Notes: generated by a model from the sequence alone, not told the origin. A stretch of 64,000 nt of DNA from an uncultured Actinomycetes bacterium (GCA_963706025.1 CAVPLM010000004.1:1-64000), one strand, 5' to 3'. Numbered from the stretch's first letter, positions 45,552 to 60,957 are shown. Made by a program: numbers and translations.

Positions 45552-46578
45552 ATGATCCCTCAGGATCGGGTATTCATAATCGCCGAGGCCGGCGTCAATC
45601 ACAACGGCTCGATCGACCTCGCCTAACGGATGGTCGAAGAGGCCCGTCGGGCCGGCGCCGACTGCGTCAAGTTCCAGAGCTTTCCACGGAGAGACTGGTC
45701 AGCCGCTCCGCTGAAAAGGCGCTGTACCAGAAGCAGTCCACGGGAGATGCTGACGACCCAGTTCGAGATGCTCAGAGCGTCTCGAGCTGAGCGAAGAGGA
45801 CCATCGGCCCTCGGTCGCCTGCTGCCGCGACAACGAATGCGGTTCCTGTCCAGCCCATTCGATGACCAAAGCGCCGATATGCTCGAAAACTGGGAGTGGT
45901 CGCCTACAAGGTCCCTTCAGGCGAGATCACCGACCACGGATTCCTGCGTTACCTCGCAGCAGAAGAACAAGCCACATCATCCTCTCGACCGGGATGTCGA
46001 CCTTAGCCGAGGTGGCCGAGGCGGTCGATGCGATCATCGTGCGGGCGGGAACCGGCAGCTCTATCTGCTGCACTGCGTGACCGAGTACCCCGCCCCGTTC
46101 GCTGAGGTAAACCTCCGGGCGATGCTCACGCTGGCCGATGCCCTCGGCTTCCCGGTGGGTTATTCCGACCACACGCCGGGCAGCGAGATCGCCGTCGCGG
46201 CGGTGGCCCTTGGCGCGCGGATCGTCGAGAAGCACTTCACACTGAGCAGGAACATGGCGGGTCCGGACCACAGGGCCTCGTTGGAGCCCCAGGAGCTGAA
46301 GTGCCATGGTCCGCGCGATCCGGAACGTCGAGCAGGCGCTCGGGAAACGGCGTCAAGGCCCCGGCACCGTGCGAGAGCAGGAATCTGGCTGTTGCCCGAA
46401 AGAGTGTCGTGGCGAGCGAGACATCATGAACGGAGAGCGAATCACCACTGAGAACGTCGCCATCAAGCGACCCGGGGCACGGCATCCAGCCAAGCGATCT
46501 GGAGAAGGTGATGGGTCTGACAGTCGCCAGTCGACATCAAAGCCGGGAGTGTCGATCACATGGGAGGATCTGAAATGA
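45552..46578 (+). CDS. neuB: Nonulosonate synthase NeuB/LegI with C-terminal SAF domain (frameshifted)
   Basis: IIAEAGVNHNG, ADCVKFQ, FLSSPFD, ILSTGMS, LHCVTEYPAP, GYSDHT, EKHFTL, GPDHRASL, IKRPG. Confidence 0.9.
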
Positions 46579-47780
46579 GCCGAAGGCGCATCTGCGTCGT
46601 CACCACGTCTCGCGCCGACTACGGATTGCTCCGCTGGCTCATGCGGGCGATCAGGAGGACACGGAGTTGGAACTGCAAGTGATCGCCGCAGGCATGCACC
46701 TCTGTCCGGAGTTCGGTCTGACCTACCGAGAGCATCGAGCAGGACGGCCTTCCGATCGACCGCAGGGTGGAGATGCTGCTCTCGGCCGACACCGACAGCG
46801 CGGCGACGAAGTCCGTGGGGGTAGGTCTCATGGCGATTTTCGGACGCCTTCGACGATCTGCGCCCCGACATCTGGTCGTCCTCGGGGACCGTTTCGAGCT
46901 GCTGGCCGCGGCATCGCCGCGCTGATCGCTCGCATACCGATCGCTCACATCCACGGTGGCGAGACCAGCCAGGGCGCGATCGATGAGGGCGTGAGGCACG
47001 CCGTGACCAAGATGGCGTCCTGCATTTCCCCGCCACCGAGGCCTACCGCTGCAGGATCATCCAGATGGGCGAGAATCCCGGCTCCGTCTTCGCCTACGGC
47101 GCTCCCGGCCTGGATGCACTGCAGCAGTGACGCTGCTCACCAGAGCAGGAACTGGAGTCGCAGCTCGATTTCAAGCTCTGAGCAGCCCGACGCAATCGTG
47201 ACCTATCACCCGTCACGCTGGAGAGGGACGCCGCCGAGGGGCAGATCGAGAGCCTGTCTACAGGCGCTGGTGCAGGAGAACGTGCGAGCCGTCTTCACCA
47301 AGTCGAACGCCGACATGCAGGGGCGGCTCATCAACGAAAGGATCGCCGCGTTCTGCCGGGAACATCCCGCCGACTACCGGCTCTACGACAATCTCGGCCA
47401 GACGGTCTACCTGAGCTGCCTGCGCCACCTCGATCTGATGATCGGCAATTCATCGAGCGGGCTGATCGAAGCGCCCTCGTTCCGACTCCCGGCCGTCAAC
47501 ATCGGCGACAGACAGCAAGGCCGCATCAAGGCGGCGAACGTGATCGATGTCGGATACTCCGGCTGCCGAGATCGCGAGCCGGCATCCGGCAGTCGCTGTT
47601 CGAGCCTTGGAGAGGAGGGCTGCAAGGGTCTGGAGAACCCTTACGCCGGTGCGGCGACAGGACCGTGAGCTTCCGCATCAAGGAGCGACTCAAGGCTGCG
47701 GAGCTTGGCGAGTCGCTCCTGAAGAAGAGGCTTCCACGACTACCTCGGACTGGGAGGGTACGCCGTGGGCGACACCGTGA
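46575..47780 (+). CDS. neuC: Hydrolysing NDP-sugar 2-epimerase NeuC/LegG (frameshifted, end approximate)
   Basis: VVTTSRADYG, GMHL..EFG, GDRFE, HIHGGE, DEGVRHAVTK, VTYHP, GNSSSGLIEAP, NIGDRQQGR. Confidence 0.9.
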
Positions 47781-53125: not shown

Positions 53126-54482
53126 ATGATGGATCTCCTTAGGGATCTTACGCCGCTGAACAGAGTGATGTGCTCCTCCGACTACGACCGCACAGTGGAT
53201 TACCTCCGTGAGTTGCTGCCTATGGCGGTCGTGGAATACCCGGACGCGGACGAGCACAACGGCTGGGTCATCCCGCCGAAGTGGGACGTTCTGGAGGCTA
53301 CCATCTGCCGGAACGGTGAGATCGTCTATGAGGGCACCAAGCATCCCCTCGGCGTGATCGCTCTCTCCGCCCCCTTCGAGGGCCGAGTGACCTTGGATAA
53401 GCTCAAGGAGCATCTTCACTACGACCACCGCTACGGCGACTCGCTCACCTTCCACTTCCGACAGCAGTTCCGCAGCTGGGATCGAGACTGGGGATTCTGC
53501 GTGCCCAAGGACCTCTACGATAGGCTCGAACCAGGGGAGTACGATGTCCGCATCTTGACACGGGAAGCGCCTGGCGTCCTCAAGGTACTGGTGGGCACCC
53601 ACCCCGGCTCGCTGCCCCACACCGTCGTCCTGTACGCGAATCTCGATCATCCCGGAGTCGCCAACGACGGGCTGGCCGGAGTCGCCGTCGGTTTCGAGGT
53701 CCTTCGGCGCTTGCAGACTCACCCGACCAAATACACCTACAAGCTGGTAATTGGGCCCGGCATCATCGGCACAGAATACTACCTTGGCAAGCTCGAATCT
53801 GAGGAGCGACGTCTCGATCCTCGAGTGCGTCTGTCTCTGGATGCTGGGTACGCGGACCCAGCTCGCGCTGCAGGACTCGCGTGAGTCGCGCTCTACTATC
53901 GAGCACGCCATCGCCAGAGCCATGGCTGATAGGCGCATATCGTTTCGTCGCGGCGATTTCGAGAGCATCATCATAAACGACGAGTACATCTGGGAAGCAT
54001 ATGGTATCCCCACCTGTTCGCTATCCCGTTTCCCGTACCCGGAGTACCACTCGTCGCGTGACGATGTCTCGATCATGAGTGAGGAGAGCCTTGAGGAGGC
54101 CGTGACGATCATCCTCGCGGCGATCCAGGATCTAGAGTCCACTCCACTGGTGGAAAAACGCTTTGACGGGACTGTCTGCCTATCAAACCCGCGCTATGAC
54201 CTGTACATCGATCCCGGCCAGGTTTCTTTTGGTCAACAGATCAGTGAGGAACAACATCAGCTCCGCCGTCTGCAGGATTTCCTTCCGTCGCTCAGGTTTC
54301 CCGTCACGGTTCGAAGTCTTGCGCTTCGTTTTGCCCTCCCCGAAGAAGCTGTGCTGGATTATCTGCGGAAATGGGAAGGCAAGGGCCTCGTAAGTCTTCG
54401 AGGGGGAGGGACGAGCGCGGACTCCAGATCGGCCACGGCGCCGCTGGCTGCGGAGGGCGACAGCGAGACGATGGCTCGGTGA
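53126..54482 (+). CDS. DUF4910/DUF2172 M28-peptidase-like protein with C-terminal HTH (frameshift near 53810)
   Basis: LTPLNR, GWVIPPKW, WGFC, DHPGVANDGLAG, YPEYHSSRDD. Confidence 0.8.
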
Positions 54483-55780
54483 AGGTGCTGTTCATCAACG
54501 ATTCGACCACAAACCCCAACTGGGGTGGGCGCGCCGCGACGATCTCGCTGAGGATGATGATCTGCCAGTCGGGCGGCACCATCTTCAGGACCATCACCAT
54601 AGAGGATATCTGTCATTCCTCCCTCGACCGTCACGTCGCCCTGGAAGCGCAGGGACCCAGCTCGAGGGAAGTCATCAAGGCTCTTGTCCCCGATTGGGCG
54701 CTGAAGCTCAGGAGGAGACTCGCGCCCGACTTTCTGAGAGCCCGCGAGGAGTCACTAATACCGAGGGAATGGGGAGACTACGACAGGTGCGCTCGCGAAG
54801 TCCTTGGCAAGACGACTCCCTGGCCCGGGCTGCTGGAAGCCATGGAGGAGTTGGACGTGGCAGTCGTCTTCGGTGACGGCGACATATACGGCAACGGCAT
54901 AGTTCCGCGCACCCTGCTTTTCCTGTCTTTCCTCATAAAGAAGCGCTTCGAAAAGCCGGTAGTCATGCTGAATCACACGGCCGATTTCGACGATCCAGAC
55001 CTTCTGGACGTGGCCAAGAGAGTCTATCCGCTGTTCGACGACGTGGTGTTCCGCGACCAGATGTCGGTGCAGCGATACATGGATTTATGCGCGGGAAGGT
55101 TCGCGCCAGACACGGCCTTCCTGTTCAAACCGGCCTCGCGGCAGACCTGGGCGCCTCTGGCGGGGCGCCCGACCTACTTCGATGTCTGGCCGGACTCTGC
55201 CTCCTTCGATCCGTCCGCGCCCTATTTGTGTGTGGGTGGTTCGTCCATTTTCGGTCCCGTGGAGAAACGGGACGCGCTCGTCACCGACTATCTCCGGTTC
55301 ATCGAGCACCTACGCGGCGTATACTCAGGACAGATCGTCCTCACTGCTTCGGACCGCACCGATCTGACCGTCTTCCGCCCGGTCTCGGCACGCTCGGATC
55401 TGCCTTTGATCGGTCCCACGATCCCGGTTCAGCAGGCGGTGGACATCCTCGGCAACGCAGATGCATACATCGGAGGCAGGTGGCATCCGGCCATCTTTGC
55501 GCTGCGGGGAGGGACGCCCGTCCTCCCTCTGTCGTCGAAGACTTTCAAGATGCAGGCACTGACCGATATGGCCGGGTTGTCATCCGCCACGTTCGGCGCC
55601 CTCGAAATGTCGGGCGAGACGAAAGCAATAGGGAGGCAGCTGCAGTCCTATTTGGAGCAGGGCGAAGACCTGAGACGCAGGCTCGACTCTTGGGCCGAGG
55701 AGATGGCGAAGAACAGTTGGGAAAACGTATCTCGCATCGGACCGACCTCTCGAAGCGTCCAAGAACCTGACCGGTTGTGA
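54479..55780 (+). CDS. Polysaccharide pyruvyl transferase family protein
   Basis: N-terminal NDS..NPNWGG, FGDGDIY, VFRDQMS, APDTAF, IGGRWHPAIFAL..GTP. Confidence 0.75.
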   Translation: MKVLFINDSTTNPNWGGRAATISLRMMICQSGGTIFRTITIEDICHSSLDRHVALEAQGPSSREVIKALVPDWALKLRRRLAPDFLRAREESLIPREWGDYDRCAREVLGKTTPWPGLLEAMEELDVAVVFGDGDIYGNGIVPRTLLFLSFLIKKRFEKPVVMLNHTADFDDPDLLDVAKRVYPLFDDVVFRDQMSVQRYMDLCAGRFAPDTAFLFKPASRQTWAPLAGRPTYFDVWPDSASFDPSAPYLCVGGSSIFGPVEKRDALVTDYLRFIEHLRGVYSGQIVLTASDRTDLTVFRPVSARSDLPLIGPTIPVQQAVDILGNADAYIGGRWHPAIFALRGGTPVLPLSSKTFKMQALTDMAGLSSATFGALEMSGETKAIGRQLQSYLEQGEDLRRRLDSWAEEMAKNSWENVSRIGPTSRSVQEPDRL

Positions 55781-56900: not shown

Positions 56901-57110
56901 TCCGATCCTCCGGGTCGCTAAGGTAGCATGCCGAGAGCCGGCCCAGAAACTATGCACTGAAGCCCTTTCCGCAGTCAAGGGGCAAACTGAAGAGTAGGCC
57001 CTTCGCGGCGTGATTCTGGCGCGGAAAGAGCATGAAGGAGACGACGGTCTGCATCGCTTCGCTTCCCAGACTGCTCTCCGACGATATTCACCCTGAGTGC
57101 AACGGCTGCT

Positions 57111-57137
57111 TAAGTATCAGTGCTTCTAGGCCGATAC
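57111..57137 (+). promoter_or_regulatory. sigma28 (FliA/WhiG)-type promoter
   Basis: TAAG-N15-GCCGATAC versus consensus TAAA-N15-GCCGATAA; lies about 30 nt upstream of the riboswitch. Confidence 0.65.
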
Positions 57138-57164
57138 AAGCCTTCGACAGCACATAGCAGTTCG

Positions 57165-57248
57165 CCAGGCGCGAAAAGGCAAACCCGCCGCGAGGCGGGG
57201 ACGCAAAGCCACGGGACTCTCTCCGAGTCAGCCGGGTTACCGAAGTCT
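57165..57248 (+). ncRNA. c-di-GMP-I (GEMM) riboswitch aptamer
   Basis: AAAAGGCAAACCCGCC-GCGA-GGCGGGGACGCAAAGCCACGGGACTC-tctcc-GAGTCAGCCGGGTTACCGAA: GGCAAACC, GNRA-capped P2, GACGCAAAGC, P3 and GGGTTACC; G at the Vc2 G20-equivalent position. Confidence 0.92.
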
Positions 57249-57250
57249 CC

Positions 57251-57296
57251 AGGCCTGACCTGGGGCATCAAGCCTTCTCGGGTCAGGCCTTGTTCA
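57251..57296 (+). terminator. Terminator-like hairpin (riboswitch expression platform)
   Basis: AGGCCTGACCTGGGG...TCTCGGGTCAGGCCT stem of about 15 bp with G-U pairs, followed by TGTT, just before the GGAGG RBS. Confidence 0.65.
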
Positions 57297-57308
57297 TGGA
57301 GGCGACCG

Positions 57309-59636
57309 ATGAAACTGCAGGCTATCCTCGTGCGATTTGACGGGTCTCGTCATATCAGAGCCCCCCGACTCTTGGCGCTAGTGTTGCTGGCCCTGGTCAT
57401 GATCCTTGCCGTGGGGTCGCAGGCCGACGCTGCGACCTTCAACGTCATGGACTATGGCGCTCGCGCAGACGGCACTACCGCCGATCAGGGCGCATTCAGC
57501 AACGCCATGAACGCGGCGGTTGCTCAGGGCGGATCGGTTTACGTTCCCGCCGGGACCTATCGCTTCACTTCTTCGCTGACCCTGGTCAATGGGGCCAAGT
57601 TCGTAGGCGACGGTCCCGAAAAGAGCATCATCCTGGGGACGGAGGACTTCGGCTTCATGATGGTCGCCATCGACCGCTCTGGGATCTCCATCTCCGGTCT
57701 TGGCTTTCGTTCCCCCGCGTACGGGAACGATGTCTACGGGCTCTTCCTAAGTGGGTGCGATAGTCCGCGCCTGTCGAACCTGAAGATGACCAACCTCGAG
57801 TATGGCATCAAGACCGGCTCGGGCAACATCGGCAGGAACTACCTCTTTGAGGACATCAAGACCGCCTCTTGCATAACAGGTCTCTACATCAGCCACATAA
57901 ACGGCGGTACGTTCAACACAATGGACATCAATGCCGTCAATGTTGGTTCCAACCAGTATCACGGTATCTACATGGAGCGCGAGTGCCGTAACCTGGAGTT
58001 CAACAGTCTCAAAGCTTCAGGAGGCGGGGGGTACGCGCTTCAGATATACCTTTCCAGCGGGACTTCGAGTGGCATCACGTTCAACCGAACGACCCTCGAC
58101 GCGACCACTGGTCGGTATCCCCTGGTCATCGGCGACGGCTTCTCCAACGTTGTCTTCAAGGATCTGACACTCATCAATCCGCGCACAGACTATTACCTCA
58201 TCAAGTGGTACTCGCCCTCCAACGTGACAATCGATGGTATTACTGCCTCGGGCGGTTCGCGGTTGCACGGAACCGAAGGAGGGACGCCTACCAGTTGCGC
58301 CATCCGAAACGGCACCTACGGGGGAGCGAACATTGGGAGCGTAGGTGGGGTGATGGTCGAGAATGTGGCACTGGGCGGCGGCGCGCCATCGACCACCACG
58401 ACCACGGCGGCTCCGGCGACGACTACCACGCTGCGCCCGACCACCACGACCCTGGCACCGACCACCACAACGACCAGGCCGCCGACCACCACGACCCTAG
58501 CACCGACCACCACAACGACCAGGCCGCCGACCACCACGACCCTAGCACCGACCACCACGACCCTAGCACCGACCACCACCACCCTGGCACCGACCACCAC
58601 CACCCTGGCACCGACCACCACGACTCTGGCGCCGACAACCACGACCACGGCGCCTCCGAGGACGACTACCACTCTGCGCCCAACGACCACCACCACGTTG
58701 GCGCCGACCACCACTACTACTGTAGTGGAGCCTCCGGAGGAACAGCTGGCGGCCGGATTGGCGTTCGCGAGTCCGTCGGAGGGCGCTACTGTCTCGGGGA
58801 GGGTCCCCGTAAAGGTTTCTGTCGATTCTGGGGCAGACGTGCGCAAAGTGAGACTGTTTGTCGGGGGGAGGCTGCTGGCTAACGACTTCAGAGCCCCCTA
58901 CGCGTTCACGTGGAATACGAATTGGGTCGCGGCGGGCAACACGTACACGCTGACTGCTGTGGCATATGGCAGGACGGGTGTGGAGATCGCTCACGACAGT
59001 ATTCAGATAAAGGTCGGCGAACCCAGTCCTGCGCCCCTCAGATCATTCCGAAGCGTGCAACTAACAGCGAGCACGTTTGCGGACCTGCAGGTGGACGATC
59101 CCTATGCCGACGCGATCGGGCGCCTAGCTGAAGCCGGGGTCGTGGCAGGCTTCGAGGATGGGAGCTTCAGGTCCGGGGCGACTGTAACCAGGGCACAGCT
59201 TGCGAAGATGATGGCTCGGACACTCGGCATCGCGGATGAGGGCGTGGCGCCTCAGAATCCGTTCGAGGATCTCGGTCTCGCCGATGCCGACTCATATCCC
59301 CACAAGTACGTGGCGCTACTCCACTCGGTAGGTGCGGTCGAAGGCATACAGCCGGGCCAGTTTTCGCCATGGATGACGGCAACCAGGGCGCAAGTCGTCA
59401 CGATCATGGTGAGAGCCGTACAGACTGTCGCCCCCGGGTCTCTGGCCAAACCACCGGCAGAATATGTCAGCTCGGTGGGTACCTTCGATCCAGATCACGA
59501 TTATGCGATGGCAGTGGCGGAATACAACGGTCTGCTCGAGGGTCTCGAAGGTTATGGTCCATCGTACGAGCCATGGGCACCGGCCAGCCGTGGTGAGATC
59601 GCGCAACTGCTCTCCAACCTGGTATGCCTGAACTAG
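57309..59636 (+). CDS. Secreted beta-helix + Thr/Pro linker + Ig-like + SLH(x3) protein (paralogue 2)
   Basis: Signal ...QADA; FNVMDYGARADGTTADQ; TTTTLAP repeats; FASPSEGATVSG...APYAFTWNT...YTLTAVAY (Ig); VAGFEDGSF..VTRAQLAKM, ATRAQ, ASRGEIAQ (SLH). Confidence 0.88.
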   Translation: MKLQAILVRFDGSRHIRAPRLLALVLLALVMILAVGSQADAATFNVMDYGARADGTTADQGAFSNAMNAAVAQGGSVYVPAGTYRFTSSLTLVNGAKFVGDGPEKSIILGTEDFGFMMVAIDRSGISISGLGFRSPAYGNDVYGLFLSGCDSPRLSNLKMTNLEYGIKTGSGNIGRNYLFEDIKTASCITGLYISHINGGTFNTMDINAVNVGSNQYHGIYMERECRNLEFNSLKASGGGGYALQIYLSSGTSSGITFNRTTLDATTGRYPLVIGDGFSNVVFKDLTLINPRTDYYLIKWYSPSNVTIDGITASGGSRLHGTEGGTPTSCAIRNGTYGGANIGSVGGVMVENVALGGGAPSTTTTTAAPATTTTLRPTTTTLAPTTTTTRPPTTTTLAPTTTTTRPPTTTTLAPTTTTLAPTTTTLAPTTTTLAPTTTTLAPTTTTTAPPRTTTTLRPTTTTTLAPTTTTTVVEPPEEQLAAGLAFASPSEGATVSGRVPVKVSVDSGADVRKVRLFVGGRLLANDFRAPYAFTWNTNWVAAGNTYTLTAVAYGRTGVEIAHDSIQIKVGEPSPAPLRSFRSVQLTASTFADLQVDDPYADAIGRLAEAGVVAGFEDGSFRSGATVTRAQLAKMMARTLGIADEGVAPQNPFEDLGLADADSYPHKYVALLHSVGAVEGIQPGQFSPWMTATRAQVVTIMVRAVQTVAPGSLAKPPAEYVSSVGTFDPDHDYAMAVAEYNGLLEGLEGYGPSYEPWAPASRGEIAQLLSNLVCLN
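58391..58722 (+). repeat. Coding Thr/Pro-rich tandem repeats (21-bp GCACCGACCACCACGACCCTA/G units)
   Basis: Encodes about 110 aa of (TTTTLAP/TTTTTRPP)n. Confidence 0.9.
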
Positions 59637-59823: not shown

Positions 59824-60957
59824 ATGCCGCTGCCAAGTCGCCAAAACCCGCGGGAGCGATTTCCCCGGACCGTCAAGATCGTCTTATACGCGATCGCGTT
59901 AGCAGTGTGTGCCGCCCTTCTGATTCTCGGCACAACGGAAAGCCGGCGTGTGTTCGACGTTATGGATTACGGCGCCACGGGCAATGGTGCAGCTGACGAC
60001 GCCGGCGCCATCCAAGCGGCGATCGACGACGCGGCGGCGGTGACCGGCACTGTCACCATCCCGGCAGGCACCTTTATGCTCGGCTCCCCCCTATATCCGC
60101 GAAACGGCATCAGCCTTGCTGGTACGCCGGGGCAGACGATCCTCACCATGTCGGCCCAGTCCTCCCAGACCTTCATGGTGCAGGGCAGCGACCTGAGCCA
60201 GGTGAGCTTCTCCGATCTTACCTTCCGGGGCGGTGGTTACACCCAGAACGTCAATGGTCTCTACATGGTGGGAGCGCAGAACTGTAGAGCGAGTTCGTTG
60301 CGCTTCGAGGGTCTGTACTACGGCATGAAGCTGGGTTCGGGCAACATCGGCAGCGGCTGGGTGGTAAGCGACATCGTGGCTCGGGACTGCCTGGATCCCC
60401 TCTACGCCTCCCACATCCGCGATTCCAGCTTCACCCGTCTCGATCTCCAGGCCGCGAGGATCTCGGACAACCAGGACCATACCATCTACCTGGAGCGCGA
60501 GTGCCGCAACCTTAACTTCACCGACTGCACTCTCAGCGGCGGCTCCGGTTACACCCTGCACCTCTGGGTATCGGGAGGCAGTTCCGGTGACCTCACCTTC
60601 ACGAACCTCACCTTGGACGCCCGTCCGGGGAGGTACCTGCTGGTGATCGGGACCGGGTGGTCGGACATCGTCTTCACAGACAGCACCCTGTTCGCCAATC
60701 CAGAAGGTGCGGTAGCCTCGATCTACGGGGCTTCCGACGTCACGTTCGACGGCTTTTGGGCCTCGGGAGGGGATTCGCTGGTGGGGCCTGGCGGCGCCCG
60801 ACCCGACGGAGTCGTCTTCCGTAACGGCGTCTACGTGGGGTCGGAGCTGGGCAGCGGCGCGGTATTCGAGAACGTGACGCTCGTGAGTCCCGATGGGACG
60901 CCCGGCACAACAACACAGCTAGCGTGTTCTCGGGGCGAGTCTTGCTGCCCGGCTTAG
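59824..60957 (+). CDS. Secreted or membrane-anchored beta-helix protein without SLH (paralogue 3)
   Basis: N-terminal hydrophobic segment; FDVMDYGATGNGAADDAGAIQAAIDDA; shares YGMKLGSG, NQDHTIYLEREC and GRYLLVIG with the other two. Confidence 0.85.
   Translation: MPLPSRQNPRERFPRTVKIVLYAIALAVCAALLILGTTESRRVFDVMDYGATGNGAADDAGAIQAAIDDAAAVTGTVTIPAGTFMLGSPLYPRNGISLAGTPGQTILTMSAQSSQTFMVQGSDLSQVSFSDLTFRGGGYTQNVNGLYMVGAQNCRASSLRFEGLYYGMKLGSGNIGSGWVVSDIVARDCLDPLYASHIRDSSFTRLDLQAARISDNQDHTIYLERECRNLNFTDCTLSGGSGYTLHLWVSGGSSGDLTFTNLTLDARPGRYLLVIGTGWSDIVFTDSTLFANPEGAVASIYGASDVTFDGFWASGGDSLVGPGGARPDGVVFRNGVYVGSELGSGAVFENVTLVSPDGTPGTTTQLACSRGESCCPA

Follow-up and report, generated by a model that had tools for sequence, protein, structure and literature searches.

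The 64,000-nucleotide (nt) stretch of DNA analysed here, hereafter the window, comes from an uncultured bacterium of the Actinomycetes (GCA_963706025.1, CAVPLM010000004.1:1-64000). It contains a gene for a secreted beta-helix protein with an SLH domain, and the upstream region of this gene appears to place two responses to c-di-GMP (cyclic dimeric guanosine monophosphate) in series on one transcript. In the intergenic stretch concerned (56979-57308, + strand), the letters CTTAAG, a spacer, GCCGATAC, a 32-nt leader, a c-di-GMP-I (GEMM-I) riboswitch aptamer, two overlapping hairpins (H1 and H2), GGAGG and ATG follow one another. The same order of elements (TAAG-N15-GCCGATAC, GEMM-I aptamer, hairpin, ribosome-binding site and SLH beta-helix gene) had been put forward in an earlier reading of the window sequence alone, referred to here as the original prediction, and all of them are present with coordinates within a base; the gene lies on the + strand, with its ATG at 57309 and not at 57310.

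The gene (57309..59636, +, with the stop at 59636) encodes 775 amino acids (aa), in which Pfam identifies a PF12708 beta-helix at residues 44-260 (61.6 bits), a Big_7 domain at residues 485-550 and an SLH domain at residues 590-632 (55.0 bits). The N-terminus resembles a signal peptide when the translation is read by eye, and weak sequence matches in the PDB include pectin lyase (7chu), the mannuronan C5-epimerase AlgE4 (2pyg) and rhamnogalacturonase A. The protein is a predicted glycan-active, wall-anchored enzyme. The beta-helix is joined to Big_7 by a long Thr/Pro-rich linker (~58400-58720, residues ~365-470), which is built from near-repeats (TTTTLAPTTTT / TTTTTRPPTTTT).

The aptamer was identified with cmscan at 57170..57245 (+). 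The variant model RF03167 (c-di-GMP-I-GGC) scored 68.0 bits (57170-57245, gathering score 59, E value 6e-14) and the parent model RF01051 scored 67.6 bits (57168-57244, gathering score 35, exceeded by 32 bits). The RF03167 match is the sole match above gathering that cmscan reports in the whole 64,000 nt, and a permissive scan of 57000-57450 gave only noise beyond the aptamer. The two models are effectively tied, and it is the 0.4-bit lead of RF03167 that makes clan competition in cmscan label the aptamer GGC. In the cmscan alignment the ligand-contact equivalents are G57178, A57205 and C57240, which we take to correspond to G20, A47 and C92 of Vc2. A57205 stands in the window in place of the G conserved at model position 37 of the RF03167 consensus, and A57239 likewise replaces the G of position 74; the scaffold is like that of the variant while the letters at these two positions are those of the parent class. 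Position 37 is A in all three GEMM-I copies of the genome and in 135 of 140 clade aptamers (G in 1; 4 unmatched by the pattern used). The GGC of the name presumably denotes the three ligand-contact positions, which are G-A-C in the parent. On that reading the window carries a canonical c-di-GMP-I aptamer, as originally proposed, with c-di-GMP binding predicted.

Upstream of the aptamer, a sigma-28/WhiG-type -35 element lies at 57109..57114 (+; C-TTAA-G with a 16-nt spacer, or equally TAAG at 57111-57114 with a 15-nt spacer) and the -10 element GCCGATAC at 57130..57137 (+; consensus GCCGATAA). From the usual sigma-28 spacing, transcription would start at ~57144-57147, giving a predicted 5' leader (57144..57169, +) that includes the extension of the 5' strand of aptamer helix P1 (A57167-C57170). 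The criterion applied to WhiG promoters of Rubrobacter in PMC8325347 is a -35 of TAAA and a -10 of GCCGATAA, spaced by 15-16 nt, with ≤2 mismatches and a start codon ≤200 bp away; TAAG-N15-GCCGATAC departs from TAAA/GCCGATAA by 2 mismatches, and 172 nt separate the end of its -10 from the ATG. A simple sigma-70 scan found no + strand site in the upstream region of the gene.

A paralogous leader in the same genome (G000:C19:32475-32551, - strand; L002/L004) has a GEMM-I aptamer, H1 and H2 hairpins as in the window, GGAGG, ATG and a paralogous PF12708 beta-helix gene behind it. Its promoter reads GCTCAAG-N15-GCCGATAG, with CTCAAG at the matching register, and lies 31 nt before the aptamer, an equal -10-to-aptamer distance. 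The -35 and -10 letters are kept between the two leaders while the 15-nt spacer is almost wholly different, the pattern of conservation that a promoter should leave. The beta-helix/SLH gene is inferred to be transcribed from a sigma-WhiG (sigma-28 family) promoter, with the start site and the dependence on WhiG predicted. A further motif, ACAnnAUAGCAGUUnGCCAG, is common to the leaders of the window, the paralog, L041 and L110. The third GEMM-I copy of the genome (G000:C5:675461-675547, +; L003/L006) has no sigma-28 match, its upstream region being AT-richer with TTGACA...TAGGAT-like letters, and the open reading frame (ORF) behind it begins MKKRYLVALIVVV and belongs to no Pfam family.

The association of promoter and aptamer was surveyed in 101 genomes, namely the window's own and 100 relatives, from which all RF01051 matches above gathering were taken (140 matches in 71 of the 101 genomes). 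The 150 nt upstream of each was scanned in the sense direction for TAAA or TCAA, a spacer of 15-16 nt and GCCGATAA with CGA fixed, allowing ≤2 mismatches. A promoter match precedes 69 of the 140 aptamers (6 with 0, 35 with 1 and 28 with 2 mismatches), compared with 1/137 on the antisense strand, 3/137, 2/136 and 1/137 in three coding-region controls and 0.75/137 in mononucleotide shuffles. This is a ~40-fold enrichment over controls, and co-occurrence by chance is unlikely. At positions that the scan had left free, C precedes the -35 tetramer in 54/69 and G follows it in 61/69, which fits the extended sigma-28 -35. The combination occurs in 50 of the 71 genomes, 23 of 32 genera and 6 of 7 families, and 67 of the 69 sequences are unique; by kinship the matches are 2/3 in the genome itself, 0/3 in the same genus, 43/87 in the same family and 24/47 in the same class.

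Pfam searches of the first long ORF past each aptamer (138 ORFs) show which genes lie behind these leaders. Promoter matches were found in 15 of 17 PF12708 beta-helix leaders, so that the sigma-28/WhiG-type promoter of the original prediction is conserved both in the paralog and among homologous leaders; the comparison of related leaders had no same-genus ortholog to draw on, the gene homologs there being only 28-42% identical, and a search for related loci among genome contigs gave one distant locus. Matches also precede 24/30 type IV pilin leaders, 5/6 subtilase leaders and 25/87 others (glycoside hydrolases, DUF7402, camelysin-like, SdrD-like and no family). The -10 end lies 25-31 nt from the aptamer in 15/17 beta-helix leaders and mostly 69-119 nt from it in pilin leaders. 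In relatives, some GEMM-I aptamers are clustered, with a few hundred up to a few thousand bases between them (G004:C72:436-515 and 915-989; G007:C6:2153887, 2156577 and 2167985; G087:C6:145319 and 146226; G045:C1:981780 and 984959), with exact duplicates among them (L037 = L048, L103 = L104).

Both proteins of the c-di-GMP switch on which the original prediction relied (WhiG/FliA and RsiG) are encoded in the genome. The WhiG gene (G000:C5:240711-241490) scores 350.7 bits against the WhiG equivalog model NF004935 (cut-off 343); the protein scores 282 bits against TIGR02479, and in the PDB it matches chain A of 6pfj/6pfv best (6pfj_A, 287.7 bits), compared with 169 for FliA. The gene is flanked by a tyrosine-recombinase-like ORF and an rpsB-like ORF, as read from translations. 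Neither the flagellar export gene FHIPEP nor FlgM was found in the 92%-complete genome. The RsiG homolog (G000:C5:366175-366459, 95 aa) has the motif E-x3-S-x2-R-x3-H-x3-D (ENELSKRRHLLHGQID) and matches PF22802 (RsiG-like) at 55.8 bits (gathering score 27) and the RsiG chains 6pfj_T (E 1e-8) and 7lq2_B (7lq2/3/4; E 1.5e-5) of the PDB. Motif scans requiring Q at the fourth position gave nothing convincing, and the scan with Q/H led to the RsiG ORF. One copy of the c-di-GMP motif in 95 aa makes this RsiG of the single-motif and therefore homodimeric type, which to our knowledge has so far been described only in Rubrobacteria and Thermoleophilia.

When WhiG was modelled together with two copies of RsiG and two of c-di-GMP, the complex scored 0.61 (best control 0.00; the score mark used is reached by 51/78 solved complexes and 2/108 mismatched pairs), with contact agreement of at least 74% between runs and a partner pLDDT (predicted local distance difference test) of at least 70; as a like complex has already been solved, the model shows likeness only and not binding. 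Of the 101 genomes, 94 have a match to RsiG (PF22802) and 95 have a WhiG (84 above cut-off), and none of the 7 genomes that lack an RsiG match has a GEMM-I match. Judged by these matches, a WhiG-type promoter with a GEMM-I riboswitch behind it is an arrangement conserved in a whole class that also bears the single-motif RsiG. Since the genome encodes a WhiG equivalog together with an RsiG with an intact motif, a second, protein-level input of c-di-GMP through RsiG and WhiG is plausible, with the function of RsiG taken from homology. Upstream of the genome's major type IV pilin gene stands a perfect TAAA-N15-GCCGATAT, reminiscent of the Rubrobacter regulon. Two perfect opposed TAAAG-N-GCCGATAT sites lie at C5:289297-289493, the + strand site preceding the pilin gene (starting near 289,690); this gene (MLSLIRKRMRGEKGFTLIELLVV...) has a leader of ~110 nt with no riboswitch.

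Between the aptamer and the start codon lies the putative expression platform. The 3' strand of P1 ends at G57245, with a possible extension of U57246-U57248 pairing with A57167-G57169. Hairpin H1 (57245..57266, +; GUC.CCAGG / CCUGG.GGC) overlaps both this strand and the 5' arm of H2, sharing nucleotides with each. H2, a terminator-like hairpin (57251..57290, +; -28.2 kcal/mol), pairs AGGCCUGACC at 57251-57260 with GGUCAGGCCU at 57281-57290 and has an inner stem. A pyrimidine-rich tail, UUGUUCAU (57290..57297, +), follows and may act as a weak U-tract or as the loop of a hairpin that sequesters the Shine-Dalgarno (SD) sequence GGAGG (57298..57302, +), 6 nt before the ATG. In isolation H1 has ~-10 to -12 kcal/mol and is the minimum free energy (MFE) structure of the nascent RNA up to 57268; a hairpin at this position is likewise the MFE structure in 12/12 homologous nascent leaders with the long platform.

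The leader alignment was too poor in the platform for counting structure pairs, and co-variation was therefore tested on 18 beta-helix-type leaders (12 that have the long platform and 6 from a second subgroup) by comparing self with non-self duplexes in 5000 permutations. The observed mean was reached by 0/5000 permutations for H1 and by 1/5000 for the H2 arms, that is, both hairpins co-vary. Folding nascent transcripts that end before the SD, with the aptamer enforced or not, gave an H2 that needs the aptamer in 3/9 (L134, L037 and L042), an H2 in both states in 6/9, the window included, and the reverse in 0/9; the supported direction is therefore from ligand through P1 to H2. The antiterminator of the original prediction, GUCAGCC (57227-57233) paired with GGCCUGAC (57252-57259), has the complementarity claimed, and its pair probabilities add up to 0.0 for the full leader and to 0.0005 for the nascent RNA. 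This pairing of the aptamer 3' strand with the hairpin 5' arm was rejected as the switching helix, the co-varying competitor of H2 being the local hairpin H1. Also rejected was a long-range helix joining the leader/P1 5' strand to the H2 3' arm; it is the best local duplex in ~11/18 leaders, is not above shuffles and is reached by 635/5000 permutations.

In the pilin leaders of the clade, canonical terminators are present in 22/30, and in 15/30 an antiterminator element, GG[UC]UUGCC, is complementary to the GGCAAACC of the aptamer; in L115, L138, L139, L125 and L065, for example, the terminator 5' arm and loop (GUGGUUUGCC) are complementary to GGCAAACC. These leaders look like a textbook OFF design, predicted to work as classic terminator switches.

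Taken together, c-di-GMP most likely acts twice on the beta-helix/SLH gene, through the RsiG-WhiG protein switch and through the riboswitch. By homology, RsiG loaded with c-di-GMP would sequester WhiG and act at transcription initiation, and the same messenger would act again in cis on the leader RNA. There, three structures would compete, the P1 3' strand overlapping H1 and H1 overlapping the H2 5' arm; once stabilised by the ligand, P1 should therefore work against H1, so that the very stable H2 can form a short way upstream of the SD, where it would be a terminator-like OFF element. Both layers would then restrict expression to low c-di-GMP, like that of the type IV pilin genes in relatives, and a glycan-active wall-anchored enzyme made along with pili would suit a surface-exploring or matrix-remodelling state at low c-di-GMP. 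This whole, consisting of a WhiG promoter, a c-di-GMP-I riboswitch and a terminator-like OFF H2 in a double low-c-di-GMP gate, is the best explanation available, and we would give it an even chance of being right in all its parts. The double gate of the original prediction is supported at the level of its parts, and its OFF/OFF logic for this gene is likely though hypothetical.

For the riboswitch in the window, we lean slightly towards an OFF switch acting through H2, a sign supported by the agreement of a coherent low-c-di-GMP-only logic with the RsiG-WhiG layer and the one that the original prediction had proposed. A number of observations weigh against it. The tail UUGUUCAU has 4 U in its first 7 nt, below a criterion of ≥5 U in 7 nt, a general terminator scan called no + strand terminator after H2, and the close homologs L040, L080 and L121 have no U-tract after the H2 equivalent. 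At equilibrium the window leader forms H2 with or without the aptamer, and H1 (~-10 kcal/mol) is far weaker than H2 (-28) and would therefore be a poor kinetic antiterminator. The P1 extension (AGGC/GUCU) is not significant (768/5000 permutations), with compensatory-looking changes in L110, L080 and L121 as a lead only, and the permutation tests carry no correction for the relatedness of the genomes. In part these observations favour a translational ON switch built from the same parts, which we regard as less likely but as a serious competitor, in which the ligand-free GUCUCC or the end of the H2 3' arm would pair with the SD and P1 plus H2 would free it. In the ligand-free MFE structure of the window leader, GUCUCC (57245-57250) does pair with the SD, and enforcing the aptamer in equilibrium folding raises the unpaired probability of the SD from 0.01 to 0.48; among 12 homologs treated alike, 7 show a rise of at least 0.2, 1-2 a fall and the others no change, and in most of the 12 the full-platform MFE structure pairs the strand after P1 with the SD. 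The SD also lies only ~7-12 nt past H2 in the leaders read, the pilin terminators being farther from it. The end of the H2 3' arm (GCCUU 57286-57290, able to pair with GAGGC 57299-57303) pairs with the SD in 12/18 leaders when the 5' arm is unavailable, but shuffles match this sequestering hairpin in 9-43% for the leaders where it forms, and it was rejected as a candidate. Narrow anti-SD pairing is not beyond chance (332/5000 permutations), and the wide anti-SD window (30/5000) overlaps the base of H2. The simplest ON switch gives H1 no role, yet H1 co-varies, and the 5/17 beta-helix leaders with an H2-equivalent hairpin followed by ≥5 U in 7 nt (e.g. UUUGUUU, UUUUUUG) would terminate exactly when the ligand is bound. 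Combined with RsiG-WhiG, an ON switch would make an incoherent gate, with mRNA made at low c-di-GMP and translated once c-di-GMP rises, as a pulse or band-pass, and would sort pilin (OFF) and beta-helix (ON) genes within one sigma regulon; behind a sigma factor that c-di-GMP inactivates, it is harder to rationalise at steady state.

The other alternatives concern the two sensors themselves. The riboswitch could be the only element that senses c-di-GMP, with WhiG set otherwise, with an RsiG unlike that of Rubrobacter, or with a promoter match that is not active; this is improbable. In its favour, the function of RsiG is read from homology and from a structure model that may owe its score to the like complex already solved, the RsiG motif has H instead of Q at its fourth position, 71/140 clade riboswitches have no promoter match and the third copy in the genome has a different upstream region. 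Against it stand the enrichment of the promoter and the fit of its flanking positions described above, the presence of RsiG and WhiG in nearly all the genomes, and the Q/H alternative at the fourth position, which belongs to the motif as published (PMC8325347, available text). The matches come from related genomes that are not independent, and the counts therefore describe a conserved architecture and not 69 separate events. The genome assembly (3.66 Mb, 64% G+C, 30 contigs, 92% complete) has 7.3% contamination, and this, together with the low same-genus identity, means that the window's contig (C4) could belong to another family member; most family members likewise have WhiG and RsiG. These two points, too, count against the proposed double gate. 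Lastly, the aptamer could be a specificity variant of the c-di-GMP-I-GGC kind with a ligand other than c-di-GMP. The GGC label speaks for this, resting on the 0.4-bit lead of RF03167, while A57205 and A57239 in place of G, the A at position 37 in the three genome copies and nearly all clade aptamers, and the wide margin over the RF01051 gathering score make it very improbable.

On a broader scale, the WhiG regulon of the class may have two tiers, RsiG gating the sigma factor and many individual WhiG-dependent transcripts (pilin, beta-helix and subtilase) adding a GEMM-I riboswitch of their own, with signs that may differ (OFF for pilin, possibly ON for beta-helix). This is a speculative proposal that we consider rather unlikely. 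If true, one messenger would open the regulon and sort its sub-programmes, low c-di-GMP giving pili and a rise in c-di-GMP giving a pulse of matrix or wall enzymes from pre-made mRNA.

The double c-di-GMP gate resembles known systems in its parts. With the Vc2/Cd1-type GEMM-I riboswitches (RF01051) the window shares the covariance-model match, three helices, a GNRA loop (GCGA), the G/A/C contacts and surface or motility target genes. It differs from them in the alternative sigma factor, itself predicted to be controlled by c-di-GMP, that would drive the leader, and in the H1/H2 platform with the SD ~8 nt past H2. In Clostridioides difficile, Cd1 presumably lies upstream of the SigD-encoding operon, where the riboswitch controls the sigma factor and does not stand behind its promoter. 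With the RsiG-(c-di-GMP)2-sigma-WhiG switch described in Rubrobacter radiotolerans and Streptomyces venezuelae (PMC8325347, PMC7005675), the likeness lies in a WhiG equivalog, a small single-motif RsiG with the motif E-x3-S-x2-R-x3-[Q/H]-x3-D, promoters of the TAAA/GCCGATAA type, a type IV pilin target and no flagellar export gene found; the difference is the GEMM-I riboswitch that follows the WhiG-type promoter in the same leader, in the window and in 23/32 related genera. Tandem or two-input riboswitch gates, the subject of the review PMC9481103, are alike in having two serial sensing steps on one transcript, which can sharpen the response, whereas here the first sensor would be an anti-sigma/sigma protein pair acting at initiation and the second an RNA, both for the same ligand.

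Sequestration of sigma-WhiG by RsiG with c-di-GMP and GEMM-I riboswitches are each known singly; their serial placement on one transcript appears to be new, no report of it having been found. Among the papers listed in literature searches on c-di-GMP riboswitches with WhiG/sigma-28-type promoters or with actinobacterial type IV pili, none appeared to concern the combination, in agreement with the original prediction. In the two papers on the WhiG regulon (PMC8325347 and bioRxiv 10.64898/2026.01.14.699351) the word riboswitch is absent from the available text, supplementary tables apart, and both demand a start codon ≤200 bp from the promoter. By a rough estimate ~22/24 pilin leaders with promoter and riboswitch exceed 200 bp, and the published rule would therefore systematically miss them. 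Two serial sensors of the same ligand would give a steeper, fail-safe response if their signs are coherent and a pulse or band-pass if they are not. The pattern is frequent (69/140 riboswitches, 23/32 genera) and extends to type IV pilin genes, which are the prime WhiG targets in Rubrobacter. Genome-wide maps of transcription start sites exist for Rubrobacter, which makes the idea directly testable there, and Streptomyces would serve as a heterologous host.

The beta-helix/SLH gene lies in a glycan locus, as the original prediction had it. A second PF12708/Beta_helix gene (59824..60957, +; Pfam) begins 187 nt downstream and possibly belongs to the same transcription unit, and Pfam identifies among the neighbours a polysaccharide pyruvyl transferase, NeuB, a UDP-GlcNAc 2-epimerase, a polysaccharide deacetylase and a GT4 glycosyltransferase. 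At 54371-55780 and 45630-47668 of the window lie the pyruvyl transferase, NeuB and UDP-GlcNAc 2-epimerase genes, next to the SLH-protein gene. SLH domains bind pyruvylated secondary cell-wall polymers. Since SLH anchoring needs such a polymer and a pyruvyl transferase gene is nearby, the locus may build the SLH-anchoring wall polymer rather than a capsule.

Further WhiG-type sites were seen elsewhere in the genome. A perfect TAAAG-N-GCCGATAT at G000:C10:69977 (+) lies just past a sigma-factor-like gene (C10:68863-69459), with a gatC/gatA-like ORF downstream of the site. A TAAG-N16-GCCGATAA site with an identical 252-aa ORF downstream occurs at both G000:C8:206592 (-) and G000:C9:6237 (-), which points to a segment that is duplicated, or was assembled redundantly, in this assembly with its 7.3% contamination.

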